Shown here: one piece after another, positions 1 to 57,545 of the stretch | Numbering within the stretch: the stretch's first letter is position 1 | Layout: the number at the start of each line of letters is the position of its first letter | NCBI RefSeq assembly: GCF_963921235.1 | Contig: NC_086108.1 | Location: forward strand, 45,758,001 to 45,822,000 | Source of the DNA: Mobula hypostoma | Taxonomy: Eukaryota | Direction: 5' to 3' | Length of the DNA stretch: 64,000 nt | Position numbers and translations under genes: made by a program | Notes under the pieces: model-generated | The model's database searches: none | What the model was told of the DNA's origin: nothing | The model's input: only the letters and a program-made list of their open reading frames with translations

Positions 1-204
1 TCTGGCATCCCTATTGTGTAAAGGGACACTATGTTTTAGGAAGACCTTTCCAGAAAAGTCTGGCTACAGAGGCCTCACTCATCTGACTTGAGTACACACT
101 GCCACAGTCAACCCAGCCTATTTCATCTGCAGAAGGCAGAAGTGTATCTGGTGTTCTCATTTCAAAGGTCTCAGGCTATTCTTGCTTTAACCTCAACTTC
201 CACA
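1..204 (-). repeat. ERV 3' LTR (partial)
   Basis: Minus strand starts TGTGGAAG right after a purine tract; aligns by eye (about 75-80%) with 9945-10113, e.g. tccctattgtgtaa..ggaagacctttc..acagaggcct..cttgag.acacactgc. Confidence 0.8.
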
Positions 205-219
205 CTCCCTCTTCTTTAT
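205..219 (-). promoter_or_regulatory. Polypurine tract of the ERV
   Basis: Minus strand ATAAAGAAGAGGGAG immediately followed by the TG that starts the LTR. Confidence 0.7.
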
Positions 220-397
220 CCTGTACAAATCTTACGGAATCTCAGTAACACAGAATCTCCGAAACTCTGTGACGGTTTCATCAGGGACAGTTGTCTGTGG
301 GTATCAGGGATGTACGTGCAACACTCGTGGCTAATAGTGGCACAAGTATCATAGAAAGTCTAGTCTAGTTGATTTTCGGTGGGTGGGGGGGGGAACA

Positions 398-930
398 CAA
401 GTTCAAGTTTAATTGCTATTCAACCATACATGAATACCCGTGAATGTGGCCAAATGGAACAACGTTACTCTGGGTCCAAGGTGGAAAATACAGTATCTGC
501 GGTCACACACAGCACAAGGCACATATAGCACATATAAGGTAGCAAGCACGTATAAAATATCAGTAAAATATAGTGACAGACAAAAAGATAGTCCAAGTCC
601 CTGAGTCCATAAATGTTGCAGCAGTCTACAGTTGAACACAATACAACTTGTATTCTGCCAAGCGCACACTGAGGAGATGCACAGACTCCAGCTTGGACAA
701 CTCACCACACCACCCCAGGTGGAGCACTCTGACTCTGATGCCTCTCTCAAGGGCGGCTGTAAATAGGCGACACCACAGCCTGAGGCCTGGTCCTCACTAC
801 AACCGAGTTTGCACAGCTCCCTTTCCTTCTGCCAATAAATCAGTGAATTTGGACCCGACCCGCAGCATTCCACAGTAACAGTGTCCAGCAGGGTCTTGTG
901 ATCGCAAGAAAAGCAACTGAGATGATTACT
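398..930 (-). mobile_element. LINE 3'-tail-type repeat inserted into the ERV env 3' region
   Basis: Begins aagttcaagtttaattg on +, resembling the Rex-type tails elsewhere in the window (5770, 40230); interrupts env after the CC motif. Confidence 0.45.
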
Positions 931-1920
931 CGCTGTTAGACTGCACACTGCAACTGCTCTGATGCCTCTCTGACACAGGTAGCAGCACGATCTGCGCCAA
1001 ATTCAGCTCCTTCAGTTTCTCTGCCAATGAGCAACTCTCTGATGGCGTATCGATGGGCTGATTTGGCCACAGTGCCGATTGGCAGCATTTCGGCAGTAAT
1101 GTCATTGATGGCCTCGCTAGTGTCATTTAGTGCCAAGGCTGTGTTAGTAGCCAGTTTCTCCAGCAGTGCTGAGATCACGTTAATGCTCTCGTGTGCCAGT
1201 CCGGCAGGTTCCCAGAACAAGGACACTACAATCCAGAAATGCGCAGTCTCAGTAGTCCTTGGCTGGCATCTCCTCACAGTGAGATGCAGAGAGAGTGGGT
1301 AGGTGGTTCATCCATGGTACCAAGTAGCCCAGATAACACAAACTCCTGCATGGACTCAGATCAGGCCATGATCCCATTTAAGAAGGCATACTCCTGGCAG
1401 CCAGTAATAGGCCTGTTGGCCACATAGCCAGTAAGTACCGTTAACAGGATTTGGAGGGTCACCAGTAGTATATACTTTGCAAGTATTGCTGCCTATCTAA
1501 TCCCATTCCTTGATGGTTACCAGACCTCACCCCCTTTCCCATGAAGCAGCTATGGAGTTATGCAGTCATTGTAAGTAGGTTGATACTATCTCTCAAAACA
1601 GCTGCACTGGCCAGAGTCACTCCGATGGGCAGTTGTAAGCTCATTATCAAAGTAAACCATGGAATCAACCTCGCTACCATCCGGGGGTATAAACACAATG
1701 GCAATCCACTTTCTAAATGTATAGATGCTCTCTCGAGCACTGCCAACCATCTGACTGGTTATTACATGATGCATATCTATAACTACAGCAAAGGAGAGTG
1801 TGAAGGATATTCATGCAATGAGATACTTTTGCAATTTAGGTGGAGAACAGATGTTCAGATTACCCAACATATTAAATGCATAGTGATTGGCTAATAGTGA
1901 AGATCAAGAGCTCAGTCCAT
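930..1920 (-). pseudogene. env: ERV env remnant (SU + TM ectodomain), frameshifted
   Basis: Minus-strand peptides: NQSDGWQC (decayed CWxC, 1737-1760), PVNGTYWLCGQQAYYWLP and LCYLGYLVP (SU C-terminus, about 1315-1450), hydrophobic FWIVVSLF, heptad ISALLEKLATNTALALNDTSEAINDITAEM, ISD-like TVA..HRYA, and a frameshifted CC-T-x-V. Confidence 0.85.
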
Positions 1921-2064
1921 CAGTCGTTATCAACATTGTTCTTCTGGCCTCCTGATTCCTGGTCCGGTGGCACCACTGTCTTAACGTGCGAGGCATGTAT
2001 CCACATCAGCTGTCTTTGGACCTTTAAAGTGGTAGACATGGTCAGCAATACTTGAGATGGGGAC

Positions 2065-4098
2065 TTCCCAGTGAGGCTGCAGGCAATGAATGGACCTTCC
2101 CAGTGAGGCTCCGGGCAATGAATGGACCTTCCCAGTGAGGCTCCGGGCAATGAATGGACCTTCCCAGTGAGGCTCCGGGCAATGAATGGACCTTCCCAGT
2201 GAGGCTGCAGGCAATGAATGGACCTTCCCAGTGAGGCTCCGGGCAATGAATGGACCTTCCCAGTGAGACTCCGGGCAATGAATGGACCTTCCCAGTGAGG
2301 CTCCGGGCAATGAATGGACCTTCCCAGTGAGACTCCGGGCAATGAATGGACCTTCCCAGTGAGACTCCGGGCAATGAATGGACCTTCCCAGTGAGACTCC
2401 GGGCAATGAATGGACCTTCCCAGTGAGACTCCGGGCAATGAATGGACCTTCCCAGTGAGACTCCGGGCAATGAATGGACCTTCCCAGTGAGGCTCCGGGC
2501 AATGAATGGACCTTCCCAGTGAGACTCCGGGCAATGAATGGACCTTCCCAGTGAGACTCCGGGCAATGAATGGACCTTCCCAGTGAGGCTGCAGGCAATG
2601 AATGGACCTTCCCAGTGAGGCTCCAAGCAATGAATGGACCTTCCCAGTGAGGCTCCGGGCAATGAATGGACCTTCCCAGTGAGGCTCCGGGCAATGAATG
2701 GACCTTCCCAGTGAGGCTCCAAGCAATGAATGGACCTTCCCAGTGAGACTCCGGGCAATGAATGGACCTTCCCAGTGAGGCTCCAAGCAATGAATGGACC
2801 TTCCCAGTGAGGCTCCGGGCAATGAATGGACCTTCCCAGTGAGGCTCCGGGCAATGAATGGACCTTCCCAGTGAGACTCCGGGCAATGAATGGACCTTCC
2901 CAGTGAGACTCCGGGCAATGAATGGACCTTCCCAGTGAGACTCCGGGCAATGAATGGACCTTCCCAGTGAGGCTGCAGGCAATGAATGGACCTTCCCAGT
3001 GAGGCTCCAAGCAATGAATGGACCTTCCCAGTGAGGCTCCGGGCAATGAATGGACCTTCCCAGTGAGGCTCCGGGCAATGAATGGACCTTCCCAGTGAGA
3101 CTCCGGGCAATGAATGGACCTTCCCAGTGAGACTCCGGGCAATGAATGGACCTTCCCAGTGAGGCTGCAGGCAATGAATGGACCTTCCCAGTGAGGCTCC
3201 AAGCAATGAATGGACCTTCCCAGTGAGGCTCCGGGCAATGAATGGACCTTCCCAGTGAGGCTCCGGGCAATGAATGGACCTTCCCAGTGAGGCTCCAAGC
3301 AATGAATGGACCTTCCCAGTGAGGCTCCGGGCAATGAATGGACCTTCCCAGTGAGGCTCCGGGCAATGAATGGACCTTCCCAGTGAGACTCCGGGCAATG
3401 AATGGACCTTCCCAGTGAGACTCCGGGTAATGAATGGACCTTCCCAGTGAGGCTCCGGGCAATGAATGGACCTTCCCAGTGAGGCTGCAGGCAATGAATG
3501 GACCTTCCCAGTGAGGCTGCAGGCAATGAATGGACCTTCCCAGTGAGGCTCCAAGCAATGAATGGACCTTCCCAGTGAGACTCCGGGCAATGAATGGACC
3601 TTCCCAGTGAGGCTCCGGGCAATGAATGGACCTTCCCAGTGAGGCTCCGGGCAATGAATGGACCTTCCCAGTGAGGCTCCAAGCAATGAATGGACCTTCC
3701 CAGTGAGACTCCGGGCAATGAATGGACCTTCCCAGTGAGGCTGCAGGCAATGAATGGACCTTCCCAGTGAGGCTCCAAGCAATGAATGGACCTTCCCAGT
3801 GAGACGCCGGGCAATGAATGGACCTTCCCAGTGAGGCTCCGGGCAATGAATGGACCTTCCCAGTGAGACTCCGGGCAATGAATGGACCTTCCCAGTGAGG
3901 CTGCAGGCAATGAATGGACCTTCCCAGTGAGGCTCCAAGCAATGAATGGACCTTCCCAGTGAGACTCCGGGAAATGAATGGACCTTCCCAGTGAGACTTT
4001 GGGCAATGAATGGACCTTCCCAGTGAGACTTTGGGCAATGAATGGACCTTCCCAGTGAGACTTTGGGCAATGAATGGACTTCCCAGTGAGACTCCGGG
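2065..4098. repeat. Minisatellite, 32-bp unit, about 64 copies (TTCCCAGTGAGGCTCCGGGCAATGAATGGACC)
   Basis: Directly visible; a constant ~24 bp plus about 5 variants of an 8-bp segment (GCTCCGGG, ACTCCGGG, GCTGCAGG, GCTCCAAG, ACTTTGGG). Confidence 0.99.
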
Positions 4099-4269
4099 TA
4101 GTTCTTTCATCAGTAGGCTCTCACCAGTACCTAATCTCCCAGCTGGTAGATCTGACACTCTGCAGCCAGTATGATCTTCTAGGGTTCAAATACCTGTTGA
4201 TGGAAACCTTTAAGAGCTTATGTTAGTACAATACAATATTGCAGCATGCTTTCACTCATAATATAGATG

Positions 4270-4905
4270 GTGGTTGGTGGCATCCGTTAGTCTCGTGAGA
4301 CGATGGATCTGCGCCTGGAAAGTCTTGCTTCTATACCATCATGGTGAGGCAACACTGGAGTGTCCTCTTCAGGGCACAGGCCTGGGCAAGGTTGTATGGA
4401 AGACCGGCAATTGCCCATGCAGCAAGTCTCCTCTCTCCACGACACCAATGTTATCCAAGGGAAGGGCAAATGCTGATGCAGCTTGGCACCAGTGTCGTCA
4501 CAGAAGTTGCCAGAACGAGGTTGAAGGCAATGTCAGACTGCCTTAGGGACTCCAGCTCCGGATTTGTCCTCAGGGTTTACTCCCGAAGCCTTTCCCATGA
4601 GTGGGTATGGCTGCGAGGCAGCGGAGGTTTGAAATCAGAGCTTTCCCTCTCCTAAATGGACTGCCTTCCCAGGCTGACGAGATCCATTTACCCGAAGCAT
4701 TGGTTTTAAGGCGCCAGGACCCGCCTTCACCCCTTCTCCTGTCAGTAGAAACAGTTCCGCCGGGCTTAGAGGCTAAGCCACACGAGAAGGCCAGGAGTTG
4801 GACTTGGTTGTCAGAGGCTATTTGAGGCACATGCCATGAGGAGCACTTTTAGGCAGTGGGAGCTTGTCCCCACTACCACTCCGCCGCTTGACAACTTTAA
4901 GAACC
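4270..4905 (-). mobile_element. Non-autonomous RTE-type retroposon inserted in ERV integrase
   Basis: 10-bp TSD AATATAGATG (4260-4269, 4906-4915); non-coding; resembles RTE 5'UTR/3' end (family assignment from recall). Confidence 0.7.
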
Positions 4906-5764
4906 AATATAGATGTGCATCTGTTAATTAAAAAGACAGCGGTGACTGGCAGGCAGATGGGATGTCCCAAAGCTGTCTCATGCTGAGATAGGCCTGTTAA
5001 GCAGTGCATTATGATGAGGGCCAGTGGAAATACCTTTGACCACTTTAAGTCAGTCTCACCGTTCAGTTTAGCTGACCTGCATTTGAGGGGCTCTCTCTGT
5101 CTTTTAGCTGCCCCGTAAGATTGATGGAGTAAGGGCAGGTGAAACAATGCTTACACTATAAGGCTTTTGTTAGTTCCTATATAACCTTACCCATAAAGTG
5201 AGGACCATTATCATTGGAGACTCTCTTGGGGATCCCAAACCTAGAAATAAATGATTGTGATACAAATTATCAACAGTTACAGCATCACTTCTCTGAATCG
5301 GATAAACCTTCACCCGTGGAGATAACAAACAAATTAACAAGTGCATTATCACATCCTATACATTTTGGCAAGTGCATGAAGTCCATTTAGAGATGCACAG
5401 ATGAGCTCTTGGGGGAGGGCCCAGCAGCGGCAGATACCGGCAGTGTCTTTCAGAATTATGTGTTTGGCAAATCATACAGTTGTTGCTACTTTTCTTGCTA
5501 TGATCGAGAATCTCTCATTTTCAATTGTACCCACCATCCTTTATAGTCTTACACATAGTGTGATTTAGTCCCTGATGTTCTTTCAGTCTCTGACACAATG
5601 CATCACACTGTAATTGTGCAGAATTTGGAAAGTGTTGGCAGCCTGATGACGCTGGAGTGCTACTTGGGCATAAAGATCTGCTGTCACTGCCTTAGCAAAG
5701 AAGTCAGCTTGTTTATTCCCTCCAGTTATTTCATCCTCCCCGTTAGTATGAGCCACATAGTTAT

Positions 5765-6505
5765 AGAAAAAGTTCAAAGTAAACTTAATATCAAAGCACA
5801 TGTATGACACCATGTACAACCCTGAGATTGATTTTCTTGCAGGCATACTCAATAAAACCATAATGGAGTAATAACCATAACAGAGTCAATGAAAGACCAC
5901 ACCCACTTGTGCATCTAACCAGTGTGCAAAAGACATGAAACTGTGAAAATACAAAAAGAAAATAAGAAATAATAATAATAAAAAATAAGCAATCAATATC
6001 TAGAACATGAGATGAAGAGTCCTTGCAAGTGAACTTATAGGTTGTGGGAACGTTTCAATGATAGGGCAATTGCTATTGTTTGAAGTTATCCTCTGGTTCA
6101 AGGTCCTGATGGTTGATGGGTAATAACTGTCCTGACCTGGTGCTGTGAGTCCTGAGGTTCCTGTACCTTTTTCCTGAGGGCAGCAGTAAGAAGAGAGCAT
6201 ATGCTGGGTGGTGGGGGACCTTGATGATGGTTGTCGCTTTCCTGCGACAGCGTTTTGTGTGCATGTGCTTAATGGTGGGGAGGGCTTTACCCATGATGGA
6301 CTGGAACATATCCACTACTTTTTGTAGGATTTTCTATTAAAAGGCAATGGTGTGATGCAGCCAGTCAATATACTCTCCACTAGACATCTATAGAAGCGTG
6401 TCAAAATTTTAGATGTCATGCCAAGTCTTCACAAAGGAGGTAGAGGCGTGCTGGGCTTTCTTCATAAATGCACTTAACGCACTGAACCCAGGACAGATCC
6501 TCCAC
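5765..6505 (-). mobile_element. Rex1/Babar-type LINE 3' fragment
   Basis: ORF 6073-6315 RCRRKATTIIKVPHHPAYALFLLLPSGKRYRNLRT, the typical Rex ORF2 C-terminus. Confidence 0.8.
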
Positions 6506-6514
6506 GTCAGCCAC

Positions 6515-7515
6515 AGATGTGTCATCCTACCTTCAGAATACTTCTTCCTCTTTGGGATGTATATATCCTCTGCCTTCCAAATTGCTCCCAGAAATTCCAG
6601 CCACTGCTACTCTGCCGTTATCCCTGCTAGTGTTCCCTTCCAATCAATTTTGGCCAGCTCCTCTCTCATGTCTCTATAATTCCTGTTACTCTACTGTAAA
6701 ACTGATATATCTGTTCTCCTTCTCAAATTGCAGGGTGAATGCTATCATATTATAATCACTGCCCCTAAGGGTTCCTTTACCTTAAGCTCTCTAATCTATT
6801 CTGGTTCATTGCACAACACCCAATCCAGAATAGCTGTTCAACCACAAGCTGCTCTAAAAAGCCATATCATAGGCATTCTAGAAATTCCCCCTCTTGGGAT
6901 CAAGCACTAATTTTATCTACCTGCATATTGAAATCCCCCATGACTATCGTAACATTGCCCTTTTGACATGCAATTTCTATCTCCCATTGTAATTTGTAGA
7001 CCACATCATTACTACTGTTTGGAGGTCTGTATACGACTCCCATCAGGGTATTTTTACCCTTGAAGTTCCTTAACTCTACCCTCAACAATTCTTCATCTTT
7101 TAATCCGATGTCATCTCTTTCTAATGATTTGATTTCTATTTTTATCCACAGAGCTACCCCACCCCCTCTGCCTACCCGCCAGTCCTTTTGATGCAACGTG
7201 TATAAGCTCCCAGCTATAATTTTCTTTCGGGCATGATTCAGTGATGCCCACAATGTCATACGTGCCAGTCTCTAACTCTGCTACAAGATCATCTACCTTA
7301 TTCCGTGTACTGCATGCATTCAAGTACAGTATAACACCTTCAGTCCTGTATTCATCCTTTTCAATTTTGTCCCCTTTTACACTGCAACTCATCTAACTGA
7401 TTGCAATTTTGCCCTATCATCAGCCCCTCCTTGCTAGCAGTCTCACTATACGCTTCTTCTGTTTGTAAACCAACTATCCCATCCTCAGCACCATCACTCT
7501 GGTCCCCGTCCCATT
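6515..7515 (-). mobile_element. CR1 LINE fragment (APE endonuclease region)
   Basis: LYLNACSTRNKVDDL..DIVGITES; GRGGGVALWIK; GVVYRPPNS; VMGDFN. Confidence 0.9.
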
Positions 7516-7519
7516 CACA

Positions 7520-7980
7520 GTTTTACTTCACTCTCCCATATCACACAATCTGGGCTGTAATTTATCATTTATTTACACTAGTATTTATTAACCCTGTGTC
7601 CCTGCTCGTAAAGTTAATCCGGATAATTTTGAAAACATTTCACATGCGTTCTACATATTCATTAGCATCATTGTCTCCTGCCTGTCACTGTTTTTTATGC
7701 CAACCTACAGTGCAAGGGAAACATTTTCTTAGAGCTCCTGCTAGGTACATTTAAATCAACATTTCGCTCTCTCACTCTGCACCTCTCCACCTCCCATCTC
7801 CCATCGTGCAGCTGGGAACCGCTGTCTGTGGCAGGGCACTGGCTGATGCCAGTCTGACTGAGTACTCGAGAGGTGCCACTTGCTGAATCCATGCCTGGGG
7901 AAGGCAGGGGTGCAGCATCTAGTTCATCCTCAGACTCTGGACCTACTACTTTCTTTTCAAACACTGAGGTAGACACTATT
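7520..7980 (-). pseudogene. Probable ERV gag remnant
   Basis: Position between leader and pol; minus-strand KQ*QAGDNDANEYVERM*NVF resembles the capsid major-homology region. Confidence 0.45.
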
Positions 7981-8384
7981 ATCCTTTGCCTGTTCTTTCT
8001 GTGCTTTTTCCTTCTTCAACTTTTGCTCACCTTCTCTGCTTTTTAACAGGATTCATCATACTCGTTTTGCATTTCACATCTACATTAAACCAACACAGGC
8101 CACTCTACATTTTCCTTTCTATGACACATGTCTGCAGACATTCCACCCATACAATATACTTCACAGCATATTTAATCCTTTCTGGTGCACAATGTACAAA
8201 CGTGCATGCTACTGAAATCCTTTAGAGGTCCGGGACTGGGGACTCTCAGGCTATCATTCATGCACACGCAATCAGAACACACACACACACACACACATGC
8301 ATATACAAATGTACACAGACGCACACATTTTGGAGTTCCACTGATTTACAACACACTTAATGAATTTTCTTAACTTCATGTGAA

Positions 8385-9790
8385 CTCCAAGCTGGACCAC
8401 GGCAACACCTCATGTGGGCTCCATCCCAGACCATGGCAATCGTTTTCTGGGCTCCAACCTGGACCACAGCATCATCTCATGTGGGCTCCAACCCGTACCA
8501 TGGCAACAACTTGTGCGGGCTCCAATCTGGACCATAGCAACACCTCATCCAGGCTCTAACCCAGATGGCAACACCTCGTCCAGGCTCCCACCCAAGTGGC
8601 AATACCTCATCCAGGCTCCAACCCGGATGGCAACGCCTCGTCCAGGCTCCAACCCAGATGGCAACACCTCATCCAGGCTCCAACCCAGATGGCAATACCT
8701 CATCCAGGCTCCAACCCAGATGGCAACACCTCATCCAGGCTCCAACCCAGATGGCAACACCTCATCCAGGCTCCAACCCAGATGGCAACACCTCATCCAG
8801 GCTCCAATCTAGATGGCAACACCTCATCCAGGCTCCAACCTGGACAATGGTACAGCTCATCCAGGCTCCAACCCAGATGGCAACGCCTCATCCAGGCTCC
8901 AACCCAGATGGCAACGCCTCATCCAGGCTCCAACCCAGATGGCAATACCTCGTCCAGGCTCCAACCCGGATGGCACCACCTCGTCCAGGCTCCAACCCAG
9001 ATGGCAATACCTCGTCCAGGCTCCAACCCGGATGGCAATACCTCGTCCAGGCTCCAACCCAGATGGCAACACCTCGTCCAGGCTCCGACCCAGATGGCAA
9101 CACCTCGTCCAGGCTCTAACCCAGATGGCAACACCTCGTCCAGGCTCCCACCCAAGTGGCAATACCTCATCCAGGCTCCAACCCAGATGGCAACACCTCA
9201 TCCAGGCTCCAACCCAGATGGCAATACCTCGTCCAGGCTCCAACCCAGATGGCAACACCTCATCCAGGCTCCAACCCAGATGGCAACACCTCGTCCAGGC
9301 TCCAACCTGGATGGCAACACCTCATCCAGGCTTCAACCCGGATGGCAATACCTCATCCAGGCTCCAACCCAGATGGCAACACCTCGTCCAGGCTCCAACC
9401 CAGATGGCAACACCTCGTCCAGGCTCCAACCCAGATGGCAACACCTCATCCAGGCTCCAACCCAGATGGCAACGCCTCATCCAGGCTCCAACCCAGATGG
9501 CAACACCTCATCCAGGCTCCAACCCGGCTGGCAACACCTCATCCAGGCTCCAACCCGGCTGGCAACACCTCGTCCAGGCTCCAACCCGGCTGGCAACACC
9601 TCGTCCAGGCTCCAACCTGGATGGCAACACCTCGTCCAGGCTCCAACCCGGATGGCAACACCTCGTCCAGGCTCCAACCCGGATGGCAACACCTCGTCCA
9701 GGCTCCAACCCAGATGGCAACACCTCGTCCAGGCTCCAACCCAGATGGCAACATCTTGTGTGAGCTCCAACCTGGCTCATGGCAACCTCA
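8385..9790. repeat. Minisatellite, 31-bp unit (CCAGGCTCCAACCCAGATGGCAACACCTCAT), about 39 homogeneous copies flanked by diverged ~33-bp units
   Basis: Directly visible; homogeneous core about 8549-9752, diverged units at 8385-8548 and 9753-9790; lies in the ERV 5' leader. Confidence 0.98.
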
Positions 9791-9799
9791 CCTTTTTTT

Positions 9800-10136
9800 A
9801 AACACTGCAGCTTTCCTATGTTGGCGACTAAGTTGGTGTACCTTGACTACAGGAGGAAATTTGCATTCCAGCAACAGACATAGTCCCTTGTTCAATTATT
9901 GTTGTTGGGTATGCTTCCCATCCTTCTGTTATCTTGTCTGTCCATGGCACTCCCTATTGTGTAATGGGATGCTATGTTTGAGGAAGACCTTTCTGGTGAA
10001 GTCTCACCACAGAGGCCTGACTTGCCTGGCTTGAGAACACACTGCTACAATCAGTGCAGCCTGTCTTGTCTGCAGCAACCAGTGATGCTCTGGTGGTCCC
10101 AATTGAAATGTCTCACTTGACAACAATTACCCCAGG
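9800..10136 (-). repeat. ERV 5' LTR (U3 side cut by a Rex LINE)
   Basis: 9945-10113 matches 3-172; inner boundary uncertain (candidate end ..CCAACA on minus at 9819). Confidence 0.7.
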
Positions 10137-11400
10137 CTATCCGCAACCTCCACAATTGTGTCGGTATATTGAGCACAGGATAGATCCTCCGAGATGTTGA
10201 CACGCAGGAACTTGAAACCATTCACCATTTCCACTGCCGATCCTTCGATAAGGATTGGTGAATGTTCCCTCATCCCCCTCCCTGAAGTCCACAATCAATT
10301 CCTTGGTCTTACTGACATTAAGTGCAAGATTATTGTTACGACCCCACTCAACCAGCTGATCCACCTCACTCCTGTACATCTTCTCATCACCATTTGAGAC
10401 AGTTTCGTTATCGTCAAATTTACAGATGAGCTATAGCTGGCCACACAGTCACAGGCGTAGAGAGAATAGAGCAGAGATCTACACATGTATCCTTGAGCTG
10501 TGCAGGTGTTAATTGTCAGCGAGAGGAGATGTTATTTCTGATCTGCAGACTGTGGTCTCTCGATGAGGAAGTCAAAGATCCAGTTGCAGAGGGAGGTACA
10601 GAGACCCAGGTTTTGGAGCTTGTTGATTAGTACTGAGGGTATGACGTTGTCAGACTCTGAGCTGTAGTCAATAAACAGCAACCTGACGTAGGTATTGCTG
10701 TCATCTAGGTGTCTGTGGGCGAGTGGAGAGCCGCTGAGATGACATCTGCTGTAGACCCGTTGTGGCGGTGGGTAAAATGCAACGAGTCCAGGTCCTTGCT
10801 TTGGCAGGAGTTAATTCTGGCCACAACCAACATCTCAAAGCTTTTCACAGCAGTGGATTTGAGTGCAACTGGACGATAGCTGGTGAGGCAGTTATGAATC
10901 TCAGGGTTGCATATAGTGACATATATGTAGTTTGATAATAAAGTTACTTTGAATTTTGTGCTTTGAACCCTGCTCCTCTTGGGCACTGGTATGATTGATG
11001 CCCTTTTGAAGCAGGTGGGAGCCCCCAGCTGCAGCAGTAAGAGATTGAATATATCCTTGAACACTCCAGCCAGTCAGATGGCACAGGTTTTTAGTGCCCA
11101 GATACAACATCAGGGTCTGACACCTTGCGAGGGTTCACCCTCTCGAAAGACTGTTCTCTCGTCGGCCTCTGAAATAGCTCTTAGGGTCGCCACATGCTGT
11201 GGAGAATCACACAGGTATGGTTTTATTCTTCCTTTCTAAACATGCAACAAGGACGCAAAGGCATTGAACTCATCTGGCTGTGAAGCATCGTAGCTATTTA
11301 TGATGGTAGGTTTTGCCTTGTAGGAAGTAGCGGCCTGCAAACCCTGCCAGAACTGACGTGCATCCAATGCTATCTCTAGCTTCGACTATAATTGTCTTTT
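10137..11400 (-). mobile_element. Rex1/Babar-type LINE RT fragment
   Basis: FKDIFNLLL..PTCFKRASIIPVPK..YRPVAL; YRSEVDQLVEW..NNLALNVSKTKELIVDFR. Confidence 0.88.
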
Positions 11401-20459: not shown

Positions 20460-22040
20460 AGTCATAGTCATAATCATAGTCATACTTTATTGATCCTGGG
20501 GGAAATTGGTTTTCATTACAGTTCCACCATAAATAATAAATAGTAATAAAACCATAAATAGTTAAATAGTAATATGTAAATTATGCCAGGAAATAAGTCC
20601 AGGACCAGCCTAGGCTCAGGGTATCTGACCCTCCAAGGGAGGAGTTGTAAAGTTTGATGGCCACAGGCAGGAATGACTTCCTATGACGCTCTGCGTTGCA
20701 TCTCAGTGGAATGAGTCTCTGGCTGAATGTATTCCTGTGCCCACCCAGTACATTATGTAGTGGATGGGAGACATTGACCAAGATGGCATGCAACTGAGAC
20801 CACCACAGACTCGTAGAACATCCTCAGCATCATCCGGCAGATGTTAAAGGACCTCAGTCTCCTCAGGAAATAGAGACGGCTCTGACCCTTCTTGTAGACA
20901 GCCTCAGTGTTCTTTGACCAGTCCAGTTTATTGTCAATTCATATCCCCAGGTATTTGTAATCCTCCACCATGTCCACACTGAACCCCTGGATGGAAACAG
21001 GGGTCACCAGTACCTTAGCTCTCCTCAGGTCTACCACCAGCTCCTTAGTTTTTTTCACATTAAGCTGCAGATAATTCTGCTCACACCATGTGACAAAGTT
21101 TCCTACCGTAGCCCTGTACTCAGCCTCATCTCCCTTGCTGATGCATTCAACTATGGCAGAGTCATCCGAAAACTTCTGAAGATGACAAGACTCTGTGCAG
21201 TAGTTGAAGTCTGAGGTGTAAATGGTGAAGAGAAAGGGAGACAAGACAGTCCCCTGTGGAGCCCCAGTGCTGCTGATCACTCTGTCGGACACACAGTGTG
21301 GCAAGCACACATACTGTGGTCTGCCAGTCAGGTAATCAAGAATCCATGACACCAGGGAAGCATCCACCTGCATCGCTGTCAGCTTCTCCCCCAGCAGAGC
21401 AGGGTGGATGGTGTTGAACACACTGGAGAAGTCAAAAAACATGACCCTCACAGTGCTTGCTGGCTTGTCCAGGTGGGTGTAGACATGGTTCAGCAGGAAG
21501 ACGATGGCATCTTCAACTCCTAGTCGGGGCTGGTAGGTGAACTGGAGGGGATCTAAGTGTGGCCTGACCATAGGCCGGAGCAGCTCCAGAACAAGTCTCT
21601 CCAGGGTCTTCAAGATGTGGGATGTCAATGCCACCGGTCTGTAGTCATTGAGGCCGCTGGGGCGCGGCGTCTTCGGCACAGGGACGAGGCAGGACGTCTT
21701 CCACAGCACAGGAACCCTCCGGAGCCTTAGGCTCAGGTTGAATACATGGCGAAGTACTCCACATAGCTGAGGGGCACAGGCTTTGAGCACCCTGGTACTG
21801 ATACCATCTGATCCTGCAGCCTTGCTTGGGTTGAGACGTTTCAGCTGTCTTCTCACCTGTTCAGCTGTGAAGCCCACGGTGGTGGTTTCGTGTGAGGAGG
21901 GGGTATAGTCATGAGAGCAGGGTGGGGGACTGTGAGGAGGGGTAGGAGGGGAGAGTGGAATATGTGTTGGTTGGGGGCCGACAACAGATGGCTCATGTGG
22001 GGGATGGGCAGGGGCCACAATGTCAAATCTGTTAAAGAAT
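20460..22040 (-). mobile_element. Rex1/Babar LINE, 5'-truncated, with a largely open RT
   Basis: ORF 20939-22216: KAAGSDG, DYRPVALTS, FFDFSSVFNT, GAPQGTVLSPFLF, KFSDD; (CTATGA)n tail at 20460-20483. Confidence 0.93.
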
Positions 22041-22409
22041 AGGTTATATGTCAATGATTTGGAAGACAGAATTGATGGTTTGTGGCCATGTTCGGGGATG
22101 ATACAAAATAGGTGGAGAGGCAGGTGGTGTTGAGGACAGAGGGAGTCTGCAGAAAGACTTCGACAGATGAGAATGGTTAAAAAATGGCAGATGGAATACA
22201 GTGTCGGGAAGTGCATGGTCAGGAACCTTGGTAGAAGTTTTCTAAGCGGGCAGTAAATTCAGAAATCAGAGATGCAAAGGGACTAGGGAGTTCTTGTGTA
22301 GGTTTCCCTAAAGGTTAGTTTGCAGGTTGAGTTGGTGGTATAGAAGGCAAATGCAATGTAACCATTCATTTCGAGAGGACTAGAATATAAAAGCAAGGAT
22401 GTAATGCCG

Positions 22410-24039: not shown

Positions 24040-25022
24040 ATTATTATGAAACTCAGGAAAGCTCCATTTGATAAGATTAGGGTAGATTGGGAACAGGAAT
24101 TGGGGCTTACCATTTCTGTGGATGATTGGGGGCAGATTTTACAATTAGTTAATACTTCCTCTATTTGTGCTAAACATTCCCTAATTCAATTTAAAGTGGT
24201 GCATAGAGCACATATGTCCAAAGATAAGTTAGCGCGTTTTTACTCGCATATTAATCCTTTCTGTGATAGATGTTCGGGGCAGATAGCCTCTTTAACTCAT
24301 ATGTTTTGGTCTTGCCCTACTTTGGAAACTTTTTGGAGAGATATTTTCAATATTATTTCTAAGGTATTAAATATAGATATCTCTCCTCACCCTATTACTG
24401 CTATCTTTGGACTACCTAAAATTTCTAGTAATCTTTCCCCTTCAGCCCGTAGAATGATTGCATTTCTTACTTTAATGGCGAAAAGATGTATTTTACAACA
24501 TTGGAAAGAGCTTAATGCTCCAACTACCTTTTTTTGGTTTTCTCAGACGATTTTATGTTTGAATCTGGAGAAAATTAGAAGTAACCTTTATGATTCTTCA
24601 TTTAAATTTGAACAGATTTGGGGACCTTTTATTCGATATTTTCATTTAATGTAATATTTACCCTTCTTGTTTTTTTTTCACTGTTTTAATGGAGGTCGGG
24701 ATTGAGGACGTGATTTTAAGTTTAACTCTGTTTGGTTTCAAGTTAGCCCATTGCTTTGCTTTGCTTTTAGTTAGTTGCACGGTGGGTTTTTTTTTGGGGT
24801 TTTTTTGGGGGTTTTTTTTTCTTTTTTTCCATTGATATATATAAAATCTAGTATACTATTATGTTATCTTGGTTTCTTATGCTTAAATTACATTGTTTGT
24901 AGTATTTTCTTTTTGGTATTGTTATCTTTTGGAATTTTATTATACTTTAACATTGTATTAATGTTTATATGGCTTACCTTTTTTGTATACTTACTCAATA
25001 AAAAGATTTAAAAAGAAAGAAA
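24040..25022 (+). mobile_element. L1/Tx1-clade LINE, 5'-truncated (ORF2 C-terminal Zn knuckle + 3'UTR)
   Basis: Open 202-aa ORF with QFKVVHR..CDRC..HMFWSC; AATAAA and A-rich tail; 12-bp TSD GAAAATGTGTGA (24028-24039, 25023-25034). Confidence 0.92.
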
Positions 25023-29059: not shown

Positions 29060-29400
29060 GACAGTGTTAGAACGGGCAGTGTTAGAACGGGCAGAGTTAG
29101 AACGGGCAGTGTTAGAACGGGCAGAGTTAGAACGGGCAGTGTTAGAACGGGCAGTGTTAGAACGGGCAGAGTTAGAACGGGCAGTGTTAGAACGGGCAGT
29201 GTTAGAACGGGCAGAGTTAGAACGGGCAGTGTTAGAACGGGCAGAGTTAGAACGGGCAGTGTTAGAACGGGCAGTGTTAGAACGGGCAGAGTTAGAACGG
29301 GCAGTGTTAGAACGGGCAGTGTTAGAACGGGCAGAGTTAGAACGGGCAGTGTTAGAACGGGCAGTGTTAGAACGGGCAGTGTTAGAACGGGCAGAGTTAA
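29060..29400. repeat. 15-bp tandem repeat (CAGWGTTAGAACGGG), about 23 copies
   Basis: Directly visible; two variants (T/A); 29101-29220 is identical to 29221-29340. Confidence 0.98.
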
Positions 29401-30790: not shown

Positions 30791-31840
30791 TAAGATCCAC
30801 AAGATCATATTTGTTGTTCAAAACTCTTTCTGATTAAACTATCACCGTTGTGTCAGCTGATCTGTTTCTCCATCAGACGCCCGTGTCTCACATCTATACA
30901 GGTTTCACAGCCAACTTGATGACAACTGTCGGGACATCTGTTCATCTTCATGCAGGATTGCTTTTGGTTCTAATAATCTATAAAACAAATGAAAATGTAA
31001 ATATTTCTGTAAATGCAATTCCACGACCTAGAAGTTAGATGAGCCCTGCTGATAGGTACTGCGTGGCCCAATTTTTTAGCCTTTGTCTCTACAGTTTCTG
31101 TATCATCAGTAAATCTGGCCAGTTCCCAGTTACATTGGGTATCCATATTTATTTATAGAATGATCAGAACTGTAGGGAACTTCCTCATCTGTAACTTTAT
31201 ATACTTGTTTTTGTTTACTTCTGTATCCAAAATTATTGTGGCTTGTATTTAAATTGGAAATCTTTCCTGCAAAATGTTTTGAAAGCTTAAATGTATTACG
31301 TCTTAGAGTATCATAGAACTATGTTGTGCCAACCTTTTAACCTACTCCAATATCAATCTAACCATTCCCTCACACATAGCCCAGCATTTTTATTTCATCT
31401 ATGTGCCTATCTAAGTCTCTTAAATGTCCCTAATGTCTCTGCCTTACTAATCACCATCCCTCGCAGTCATTCTATGCACTTATCGCACTTGGTGTAAAAA
31501 AAAAACTACCTCTGACATCTCCCTATGCTTTCCCCCAATCACCTTAAAGTTATGCCCTCTCATATTGGCCATTGCTGCTCTGGGAAGAAGGTGCTGGCTA
31601 TTCCCTCTATGCCTTTCTCTATCTTGTACACTTCTATCAAGTCACCTCTCAACCCCTGTCACTCCAAAGTGAAAAGCTGTAGCTCACTGAACCTATCTCC
31701 ATAAGACAGCATCCTGGTAAGTCTCCTCTGCAACCTCTCGAAAGCTTCCACATCCTTCCTGCAATGAGGTGACCAGACCGAACAGAATACTCCAAGTGTC
31801 TAGATCTGCAATATTACTTCACAGCTCTTGAACTCAATCC

Positions 31841-34386
31841 CATGGCTAACGAGTTGGAAGTGCAAATCTGCAGAGAGATAGCAGGCAACTGCAGAAAACA
31901 TAAAGTTGTGGTGGTAGGGGATTTTAATTTTCCATATATTGATTGGGTCTCCCATACTGTTAGGGGTCTAGATGGTTTAGAGTTTGTAAAATGTGTTCAG
32001 GAAAGTTTTCTAAATCAATATATAGAGGGACCAACTAGAGGGGATGCAATATTGGATCTCCTGTTAGGAAACGAGTTAGGACAAGTGACAGAAGTCTGTG
32101 TAGGGGAGCACTTTGGTTCCAGCGATCATAAGACCATTAGTTTCAACTTGATCATGGACAAGGATAGATCTGGTCCTAGGGTTGAGGTTCTTAACTGGAA
32201 GAAGGCCAAATTTGAAGAAATGAGAAAGGATCTAAAAAGCGTGGATTGGGACAGGTTGTTCTCTGGCAAGGATGTGATCGGTAGGTGGGAAGCCTTCAAA
32301 GCAGAAATTTTGAGAGTGCAGAGCTTGTATGTTCCTGTCAGGATTAAAGGGAAGGTGAATAGGAATAAGGAACCTTGGTTCTCAAGGGATATTGCAACTC
32401 TGATAAAGAAGAAGAGGGAGTTGTATGACGTGTATAGGAAGCAGGGAGTAAATAAGGTGCTTGAGGAGTATAAGAAGTGCAAGAAAATACTTAAGAAAGA
32501 AATCAGGAGGGCTAAAAGAAGACATGAGGTTGCCTTGGCAGTCAAAGTGAAGGATAATCCAAAGAGCTTTTACAGGTATATTAAGAGCAAAAGGATTGTA
32601 AGGGATAAAATTGGTACTCTTGAAGATCAGAGTGGTCGGCTATGTGCGGAACCAAAGGAAATGGGGGAGATCTTAAATAGGTTTTTTGCGTCTGTGTTTA
32701 CTAAGGAAACTGGCATGAAGTCTATGGAATTAAGGGAAACAAGTAGTGAGATCATGGAAACTGTACAGATCGAAAAGGAGGAGGTCCTTGCTGTCTTGAG
32801 GAAAATTAAAGTGGATAAATCCCCGGGACCTGACAGGGTGTTCCCTCGGACCTTGAAGGAGACTAGTGTTGAAATTTCAGGGGCCCTGACTGAAATATTT
32901 AAAATGTCGCTGTCTACAGGTGAGGTGCCGGAGGATTGGAGAGTGGCTCATGTTGTTCTGTTGTTTAACAAAGGATCGAAAAGTAATCCGGGAAATTATA
33001 GGCCAGTAAGTTTAACGTCGGTAGTAGGTAAGTTATCGGAGGGAGTACTAAGAGACAGAATCTACAAGCATTTGGATAGACTGGGACTTATTAGGGAGAG
33101 TCAACATAGCTTTGTGCGTGGTAGGTCATGTTTGACCAATCTATTGGAGTTTTTCGAGGAGGTTACCAGGAAAGTGGATGAAGGGAAGGCAGTGGATATT
33201 GTCTACATGGACTTCAGTAAAGCCTTTGACAAGGTCCCGCATGGGAGATTAGTTAGGAAAATTCAGTCGCTAGGTATACATGGAGAGGTGGTAAATTGGA
33301 TTAGACATTGGCTCGATGGAAGAAGCCAGAGAGTGGTGGTAGAGAATTGCTTCTCTGAGTGGAGGCCTGTGACTAGTGGTGTGCCACAGGGATCAGTGCT
33401 GGGCCCATTGTTATTTGTCATCTATATCAATGATCTGGATGATAATGTGGTAAATTGGATCAGCAAGTTTGCTGATGATACAAAGATTGGAGGTGTAGTA
33501 GAAAGTGAGGAAGGTTTTCAGAGCCTGCAGAGGGACTTGGACCAGCTGGAAAAATGGGCTGAAAAATGGCAGATGGAGATTAATACTGACAAGTGTGAGG
33601 TATTGCACGTTGGAAGGACAAACCAACGTAGAACATACAGGGTTAATGGTAAGGCACTGAGGAGTGCAGTGGAACAGAGGGATCTGGGAATACAGATACA
33701 AAATTCCCTAAAAGTGGCGTTACAGGTAGATAGGGTCGTAAAGAGAGCTTTTGGTACATTGGCCTTTATTAATCAAAGTATTGAGTATAAGAGCTGGAAT
33801 GTTATGATGAGGTTGTGTAAGGCATTGGTGAGGCCGAATCTGGAGTATTGTATTCAGTTTTGGTCACCAAATTACAGGAAGGATATAAATAAGGTTGAAA
33901 GGGTACAGAGAAGGTTTACAAGGATGTTACCAGGACTTGAGAAACTCAGTTACAGAGAAAGGTTGAATAGGTTAGGACTTTATTCCCTGGAGCGTAGAAG
34001 CATGAGGGGAGATTTGATAGAGGTATATAAAATTATGATGGGTATAGATAGAGTGAATGCAAGCAGGCTTTTTCCACTGAGGCAAGGGGAGAAAAAAAAC
34101 CAGAGGACATGGGTTTAGGGTGAGGGGGGAAAAGTTTAAAGGGAACATTAGGGGGGGGCTTCTTCACACAGAGAGTGGTGGAAGTATGGAATGAGCTGCC
34201 AGACGAGGTGGTAAATGCGTGTTCTTTTTTAACATTTAAGAATAAATTGGACAGATACATGGATGGGAGGTATATGGAGGGATATGGTCCGTGTGCAGGT
34301 CAGTGGGACTAGGCAGAAAATGGTTCGGCACAGCCAGGAAGGGCTAAAAGGCCTGTTTCTGTGCTGTAGTTTCTATGGTTTCTATG
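31841..34386 (+). mobile_element. Young 5'-truncated CR1 LINE
   Basis: Long open ORF2 followed by CR1 3'UTR and (TTCTATGG)-type tail. Confidence 0.95.
31842..34118 (+). CDS. CR1 ORF2 segment (C-terminal part of APE endonuclease + reverse transcriptase), 758 aa; retroelement-encoded, N-terminally truncated
   Basis: VVGDFNFP, LDLLL, SDH, KSPGPD, NYRPVSLTS, YMDFSKAFDKVPH, GVPQGSVLGP, FADD; frameshift only at the A-run near 34092. Confidence 0.9.
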   Translation: MANELEVQICREIAGNCRKHKVVVVGDFNFPYIDWVSHTVRGLDGLEFVKCVQESFLNQYIEGPTRGDAILDLLLGNELGQVTEVCVGEHFGSSDHKTISFNLIMDKDRSGPRVEVLNWKKAKFEEMRKDLKSVDWDRLFSGKDVIGRWEAFKAEILRVQSLYVPVRIKGKVNRNKEPWFSRDIATLIKKKRELYDVYRKQGVNKVLEEYKKCKKILKKEIRRAKRRHEVALAVKVKDNPKSFYRYIKSKRIVRDKIGTLEDQSGRLCAEPKEMGEILNRFFASVFTKETGMKSMELRETSSEIMETVQIEKEEVLAVLRKIKVDKSPGPDRVFPRTLKETSVEISGALTEIFKMSLSTGEVPEDWRVAHVVLLFNKGSKSNPGNYRPVSLTSVVGKLSEGVLRDRIYKHLDRLGLIRESQHSFVRGRSCLTNLLEFFEEVTRKVDEGKAVDIVYMDFSKAFDKVPHGRLVRKIQSLGIHGEVVNWIRHWLDGRSQRVVVENCFSEWRPVTSGVPQGSVLGPLLFVIYINDLDDNVVNWISKFADDTKIGGVVESEEGFQSLQRDLDQLEKWAEKWQMEINTDKCEVLHVGRTNQRRTYRVNGKALRSAVEQRDLGIQIQNSLKVALQVDRVVKRAFGTLAFINQSIEYKSWNVMMRLCKALVRPNLEYCIQFWSPNYRKDINKVERVQRRFTRMLPGLEKLSYRERLNRLGLYSLERRSMRGDLIEVYKIMMGIDRVNASRLFPLRQGEKKNQRTWV

Positions 34387-56894: not shown

Positions 56895-57545
56895 AAGCTC
56901 CAGCAAAAGCTCCCTCTTCCTCCACTCGCTCCAGCAAAAGCCTCAACCCTCCCTGCTCCCTCTGCCCCCACTCGCTCCGGTAAAAGCCTCAACCCTCCCT
57001 GCTCCCTCTGCCCCCACTCGCTCCGGTAAAAGCCTCAACCCTCCCTGCTCCCTCTGCCCCCACTCGCTCCGGTAAAAGCCTCAACCCTCCCTGCTCCCTC
57101 TGCCCCCACTTGCTCCAGCAAAACCCACAACCCTCCCTGCTCCTTCTTCCCCCACTTGCTCCAGCAAAAGCCTCAACCCTCCCTGCTCCCTCTGCCTCCA
57201 CTTGCTCCAGTAAAAACATCAAATCCTCCCTGCTCCCTCTGCCCCCACTTGCTCCAGTAAAAGCCTCAACCCTCCCTGCTCCCTCTGCCCCCACTTGCTC
57301 CAGTAAAAGCCTCAATCCTCCCTGCTCCTTCTTCCCCCACTCGCTCCAGCAAAAGCCTCAACCCTCCCTGCTCCCTCTGCCCCCACTTGCTCCAGCAAAA
57401 CCCTCAACCCTCCCTGCTCCTTCTTCCCTCACTCGCTCCAGCAAAAGCCTCAACCCTCCCTGCTCCCTCTGCCTCCACTTGCTCCAGTAAAAGCCTCAAC
57501 CCTCCCTGCTCCCTCTGCCCCCACTCGCTCCTGTAAAAATATCAA
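56895..57545. repeat. 46-bp C-rich minisatellite, about 14 copies
   Basis: Unit AAAGCCTCAACCCTCCCTGCTCCCTCTGCCCCCACTCGCTCCRGTA, directly visible. Confidence 0.97.

Follow-up and report, generated by a model that had tools for sequence, protein, structure and literature searches.

The first ten kilobases of the Mobula hypostoma stretch analysed here (the window: 64,000 nt of contig NC_086108.1, positions 45,758,001 to 45,822,000) hold the minus-strand remains of an endogenous retrovirus (ERV). Between two diverged long terminal repeats (LTRs) lie the end of RNase H, an integrase and an envelope (Env) remnant, interrupted by dispersed repeats, LINE pieces (long interspersed nuclear elements) and two minisatellites. 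An earlier note, made by eye from the letters alone, had read the order RNase H end, integrase, Env on this strand; it is borne out by the RNase H end motif AH..GN..AD at 5753 and the integrase and Env that follow. The provirus belongs to a dispersed family from which protease, reverse transcriptase (RT) and the Env membrane anchor are missing, and below we argue that the family was probably copied by the enzymes of a helper.

Family copies and the missing part of pol

The family occupies at least 128 places on 28 contigs, 102 of them with internal sequence, when the results of LTR, env, integrase, gag-side and junction searches are united. Each of these DNA searches gave about 40 scored places at 68-86% identity, and 128 is a lower bound. 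Sister copies poor in insertions agree on one layout: an LTR of about 600 nt, a primer binding site (PBS) for tRNA-Gln, a gag with one CCHC zinc knuckle, RNase H, integrase, an Env ectodomain reaching to the CX6CC motif, a polypurine tract (PPT) and the second LTR. Variants private to single copies show non-synonymous to synonymous ratios of 0.8-1.3; the private decay of the copies is neutral. Two sisters have rearrangements of their own: a deletion seen only in L102 joins the RNase H side straight to an LTR, and in L009 env is gone and the integrase is joined straight to the 3' LTR. Three LTR matches of identical score (G000:C5:144378833, 144457826 and 144539448) are spaced at about 80 kb and probably stem from a tandem segmental duplication.

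In the sisters the RNase H motif follows the zinc knuckle after only about 0.5 kb, across a short collinear join. The spacing between the two could be read at 35 of 48 places, with a median of 531 nt and 30 of the 35 at 800 nt or less; once the 14 places that had been chosen by the junction search are dropped, 18 of the remaining 21 do not exceed 820 nt. Exact anchors, applied to 66 places, gave 36 informative ones: 27 have spacings of 430-620 nt, five of 680-816 nt, and single places have 152, 1321, 1603 and 2400 nt. The full-length Pol probe P0001 (RT motif at 317) covers residues 1-648 in none of 49 family loci and the integrase in up to 31 of them; in control ERV loci the same probe covers RT in three of five. 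Eighteen further integrase-positive loci have no RT in place, giving 0 of 67 overall. By our estimate about 1.6-1.9 kb of pol is missing, and most of RNase H is kept.

Envelope, integrase and class

The earlier note had recognised a gamma-type Env by a CxxC motif in the surface subunit (SU) and by an immunosuppressive domain (ISD) and CX6CC in the transmembrane subunit (TM). Of these marks CX6CC is present (344-318), the SU motif has decayed to GWQC in this copy, and the ISD is split by an insertion; several sisters read CWVC at the SU motif, and the ISD is contiguous in sisters. In tblastn searches, natural gamma-type Envs from the same genome match the window Env at E 4e-12 and 3e-10 and a stingray Env at E 3e-7. 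Taken by themselves, the Env frames of the window have no TLV_coat or other Pfam match; a sister Env frame matches TLV_coat (E 2e-7), syncytin-1 (E 5e-6) and the p15 of Moloney murine leukaemia virus (MoMLV; E 2e-4). A single Env homologue was found, in the stingray Hemitrygon akajei (E 3.4e-17 at 39% identity), one match in keeping with a cartilaginous host.

From CX6CC to the LTR, each of the 26 informative rows (out of 54; 20 distinct places) measures 88-151 nt. Envs of other families (n=11) continue for 93-128 residues beyond CX6CC, and 10 of the 11 have a hydrophobic helix there, with hydropathy 2.65-2.87; the top value for the family after CX6CC is at most 1.55 in any frame, read-through into the LTR included (12 rows, 8 places). 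Probing with the stingray Env, we found residue 390 (CX6CC) covered by 24 of 42 loci and the anchor at 450-490 by none of the 42 (controls, two of four). The membrane anchor is absent across the family, which the earlier note had missed. None of the 140 matches to the Env stretch has an open frame of more than 300 aa, so no co-opted Env copy is evident.

The genome also holds 78 TLV_coat matches from other families. There are several such other env-bearing ERV families, many with long open env and pol frames, so retroviruses invaded this lineage more than once and in part recently. ERVs with gamma-type Env are moreover reported from six cartilaginous fishes, three of them with more than 500 copies (bioRxiv 10.1101/2021.11.23.469661). 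The rarity of elasmobranch ERVs that the earlier note implied is not supported, given these published elements, the 78 matches and the 128 or more places of the family itself.

The retroviral character of integrase and Env, at first read by eye, is now carried by matches: to rve, MLVIN_C and class I Pol probes for the integrase, and by tblastn for Env, with TLV_coat in the sisters. The window integrase matches rve at E 3e-5 and MLVIN_C at E 2.9e-5, neither of which passes the Pfam cut-off, and class I Pol probes reach it at E 7e-10; a sister integrase frame clears the rve cut-off (E 1.8e-9). The window's RNase H frame has no Pfam match, and a homologue search with its own integrase frame found none among 33 candidates. 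The nearest proteins are class I-like Pols with MLVIN_C from vertebrates (a caecilian, a rainbowfish and a snake; E 6e-26 to 1.5e-21), one of them also with Gag_p30. Among PDB integrases foamy virus matches best (E 1e-9), and Ty3 matches at E 2e-4. An integrase tree of 13 rows, named viruses not among them and one row on a long branch, sets the family apart from the other ERVs of the genome at 92/99, which is no firm support. Judged by sequence similarity, the integrase and Pol are class I-like. Gag is visible only as the single CCHC knuckle of the sisters (zf-CCHC E 0.005): Gag capsid homology was not found in a Pfam search of 15 frames of the gag-to-RNase H stretch from five sisters, which gave a weak zinc knuckle and one chance match.

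Probable copying in trans and its alternatives

We consider it probable that these copies form a non-autonomous, class I-like ERV family that shares a deletion of protease and RT and a deletion of the Env anchor, and that was likely copied in trans by a helper. A doubly deleted master would have retained its cis signals (LTRs, PBS, PPT and presumably a packaging signal), and its RNA would have been packaged and copied by the Gag-Pol of a helper retrovirus that has since been lost or has decayed. The cis signals are intact in the sisters, and the deletion is shared by many dispersed copies. Amplification would have taken place inside germ cells, because an anchorless Env cannot decorate virions. 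After its insertion the window copy decayed neutrally and took in at least five transposable elements; about 450 nt, comprising part of the 5' LTR and the PBS, disappeared, and two minisatellites grew from the copy's own sequence.

Several observations weigh against this reading. RNase H itself was found in only 5-9 of the 49 loci, and tblastn is weak on DNA so decayed. RT-like matches do occur in 3 of the 67 loci, and we discount them as elements nested in a copy or lying outside it: that of L091 is on the opposite strand, outside the element, and that of L179 lies upstream of the knuckle at 25% identity; inside the integrase of sister L059 (L059:3800-5300) sits a nested element with protease, RT and RNase H, which from its motifs we take to be Gypsy-like. 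Three spacers are long enough to fit RT (1.6-2.8 kb); two consist mostly of dispersed repeats, and the long spacer of L103 is unexplained, though it has no RT match. The search for a helper came up empty: between the family and the 30 best RT-bearing ERV loci there are only weak matches of 51-79 nt, with 150 of 10,692 RT candidates and 40 of 245 integrase candidates scored. Finally, segmental duplication may have been a route of spreading, and no target-site duplication (TSD) was recovered.

The earlier note had protease and RT apparently deleted at the LINE pieces (5765-7515), which as a history would be an autonomous, infectious provirus that lost them after insertion. LINE pieces do occupy the gag-pol boundary of the window copy, and some sequence was lost there, but sisters free of any insertion have the short join, and what the LINE fragments at 5766-7511 replace, by comparison with the sisters, is about 1 kb comprising the gag end, the zinc knuckle and the beginning of RNase H rather than RT. 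The absence of protease and RT is family-wide, and we give this history very little credence. Equally hard to credit is a Gypsy (Metaviridae) element with a captured env fragment. The family offers no RT for classification, and the integrase has the foamy virus and Ty3 matches given above; against this stand the MLVIN_C domain, nearest proteins that are vertebrate class I-like Pols, an RNase H placed before the integrase with the retroviral AH..GN..AD motif, and the matches of Env to TLV_coat, syncytin-1 and MoMLV p15.

An unlikely but more substantial rival is a semi-autonomous family in the manner of the mouse intracisternal A particle (IAP) 1Δ1, in which Gag fused to RNase H-integrase, and perhaps a secreted anchorless Env, helped in cis and RT came in trans. 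The size of the deletion and the retained integrase are like those of IAP 1Δ1 (1.9 kb). Among the integrase variants shared at high frequency, synonymous changes are enriched (the ratio is 0.29-0.31, whereas a shifted-frame control has 1.07), and a stop is the commonest codon in only 3 of 163 integrase columns and 2 of 160 Env columns. However, the counts are small (11 synonymous, 12 non-synonymous), the control falls equally in the 2-3-copy class (0.54), the Env control is low too (0.49), and the synonymous signal may be older than the deletion. Nor does a fusion frame stand out: only 11 of 27 copies have a knuckle-to-RNase H distance divisible by three, and this stretch has 9-14 stop columns of 181 in every frame. 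A secreted Env has against it the 0 of 140 Env matches open over 300 aa. Suppressyn, a secreted anchorless Env encoded by a single co-opted open gene, shares with the family an Env ectodomain without anchor, but here no copy among the 140 is open. Less likely again is a combination of IAP 1Δ1 with a suppressyn-like Env, a semi-autonomous ray ERV that outlived its helper, with a Gag-RNase H-integrase of its own that would favour the element's integration and a secreted anchorless Env that would block the receptors used by competing retroviruses.

For a family copied in trans there are several precedents. IAP 1Δ1 itself shares among its copies a gag-pol deletion of about 1.9 kb, keeps the 3' part of pol, is non-autonomous and is copied in trans (PMC6466679, PMC7411935); it differs in being class II, without env, still active, with a known helper and an in-frame fusion protein (PMC6466679, PMC7411935), whereas the family here is class I-like, has retained an Env ectodomain and has long been dead, and its helper was not found among the RT loci scored. 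VL30, which is class I, and ETn/MusD (PMC6466679), as well as ERVK subfamilies of deer mice (PMC10089650), were likewise amplified with the enzymes of a helper. ETn and the deer-mouse subfamilies are described there as lacking coding capacity; in the family here a gag end, RNase H, an integrase and an Env ectodomain can still be recognised.

Among env-bearing elements, the ERVs with gamma-type Env (ERVs-GTE) of fish and amphibians resemble the family in their gamma-type TM with ISD and CX6CC, class I-like Pol, cartilaginous hosts, copies in the hundreds and accessory genes of which none were seen. They differ in that all GTEs classed in that report have a transmembrane region (bioRxiv 10.1101/2021.11.23.469661), whereas the family lacks both anchor and RT. 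Lineages II and III of elephant shark CmiERV are also env-bearing, epsilon-related ERVs of a cartilaginous fish (PMC4422223); compared by description, they differ in a complete pol and an LTR divergence of 0.024-0.033, against 0.13-0.31 here (PMC4422223). Epsilon-related ERVs occur across jawed vertebrates (PMC6001957).

A literature search that did not extend to most subscription journals or to Repbase/Dfam turned up no account of a ray ERV family lacking both RT and Env anchor. The family is apparently undescribed; the kind of element is already known, and nothing here overturns established knowledge. What it adds is a well-delimited, datable non-autonomous retrovirus family in a host group whose ERVs are thinly described. 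Class I ERVs of cartilaginous fishes likely followed the mouse-type route too, with RT deleted, Env disabled and copying in trans. Screens that start from RT, or from Pol longer than 600 aa, would miss this family, and ERV counts in cartilaginous fishes may therefore be too low.

Terminal repeats, age and layout of the locus

The LTR pair, put at 75-80% identity in the earlier note, aligns between -33..173 and 9909-10115 at 77% over 208 nt, with a Kimura two-parameter distance (K2P) of 0.27; the alignment needed flank upstream of the window to be added. The LTRs are in direct orientation, with TG starts at 204 and 10154, and the edge of the 5' LTR, and with it of the provirus, is at 10154 rather than at 10136 as first given. 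The PPT-TG junction at 204/205 is confirmed, an equal purine tract preceding TGTGG in the sisters. The LTR ends in ACA in many sisters, and the 3' end of the window copy is one base off. About 450 nt of the window's 5' LTR region (the 3' part of the LTR and the PBS) were lost at 9899/9901. The LTR-like segment is a dispersed repeat in its own right (40 scored of 451 candidates); it is not an unrelated one, a possibility raised in the earlier note, because in sister loci it flanks the same internal sequence on both sides, and we take it to be the element's own LTR. In sister L095 the 5' LTR is in three pieces (L095:300-1000 and 6600-9030), and the divergence of the pair is 0.13 or 0.21 by part.

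Of 42 listed LTR ends, about 21 by an eye count have a Gln-type PBS after them, and ARAGORN called tRNA-Gln at four of five loci matching the PBS motif. In sisters such as L097, L099 and L100 the PBS begins about 5-6 nt past the terminal CA of the LTR; the usual retroviral gap is two bases. We had considered the leader satellite as a tandem PBS and dropped the idea, the true Gln PBS having been found upstream in the sisters. No TSD can be made out here or in those sisters that have both ends, as expected at such divergence.

The great age assigned to the provirus in the earlier note holds up, both by LTR divergence and by an orthologous junction in five other organisms. The LTR pairs of five sisters have K2P values of 0.13-0.31. 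The junction between the unique flank and the 3' LTR end is bridged in the runs of five of eight other organisms (B, C, G, H and I, at about 99, 96, 94, 92 and 92% identity); the D, E and F runs yielded no bridging contig, that of F stopping some 12 nt inside the LTR, and this is no proof of absence. The insertion is older than splits of about 8% neutral divergence, and the LTR clock suggests that it is roughly three times older than those splits. Dates swing with the rate chosen: 2.2e-10 gives about 610 million years (My), which is implausible, and a mammalian rate about 60 My (rates as quoted in PMC4422223). With a span of about 60 to 610 My, we claim no firm date. Being fixed in at least six organisms, the locus is usable as a phylogenetic marker and as a check on the LTR clock.

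Table 1. Features of the provirus in the window (window positions unless marked as contig positions)
Feature	Position	Strand	Remarks
3' LTR, U3-side part	1..204	-	runs about 40 nt further upstream of the window
Rest of 3' LTR, about 360 nt	contig 45755970-45756330 (L011:7970-8330)		beyond a 1.6-kb LINE piece
PPT adjoining TG of 3' LTR	205..225	-	from sequence; sisters have the same tract
env TM remnant	226..385	-	end of ISD-like stretch, CX6CC at 344-318, about 30 codons to PPT, no membrane anchor
Dispersed repeat within ISD region of Env	390..1055		edges approximate
env SU and N-terminal heptad of TM	1065..1945	-	stops and frameshifts; SU CxxC decayed
Integrase C-terminal domain (MLVIN_C)	1947..2066	-	MLVIN_C E 2.9e-5
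32-bp minisatellite	2064..4098		63.6 copies, 95% matches; unit encodes integrase WEGPF motif; grown in situ
Linker from integrase core to C-terminal domain	4099..4269	-
Dispersed repeat inside integrase	4270..4905		10-bp duplication on both sides (4260, 4906)
C-terminal end of RNase H, integrase N-terminal and core domains	4906..5765	-
Two LINE fragments	5766..7511		one with endonuclease, Pfam E 4.9e-7
Internal segment conserved in the family, upstream of zinc knuckle	7512..8375	-	gag by position; no protein-level match
31-bp minisatellite	8376..9786		about 45 copies; arose by expansion of a short repeated stretch in the family leader
Leader remnant	9787..9899	-	PBS deleted here; tRNA-Gln PBS in sisters
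5' LTR, U3-side part only	9901..10154	-	TGTGG start at 10154

The five or more insertions of the earlier note stand as at least five interruptions, but the two satellites are the element's own sequence and not foreign inserts. The 32-bp unit is single-copy in the sisters, which join 4072-4269 directly to 2060-2085, a statement that rests on comparisons of sister sequences; all 20 exact genome matches to the 34-nt unit junction fall within this one array. It is a clear example of a retroviral integrase motif giving rise to a minisatellite. The stretch of the leader from which the 31-bp array arose is short in the sisters. Both arrays are far more uniform than the provirus is old and are therefore likely late growths. 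One provirus has thus given rise to two independent large minisatellites, and among 34 sister loci none showed an array of that size.

The LINE piece of 1.6 kb that splits the 3' LTR bears an FADD RT motif, and the two fragments at 5766-7511 are presumably of the Rex and CR1 kinds. Pfam searches of the window's natural open reading frames found no retroviral domains in the element, only the LINE endonuclease (E 4.9e-7) and a weak RT match just outside it. Beyond the provirus the window is rich in LINE fragments (10165-11070, 20942-22258, 24040-24651 and 31773-34115, the last with an open frame of 781 aa) and has further short tandem arrays at 29062-29399 and 56909-57538. The assembly measures 3.48 Gb.

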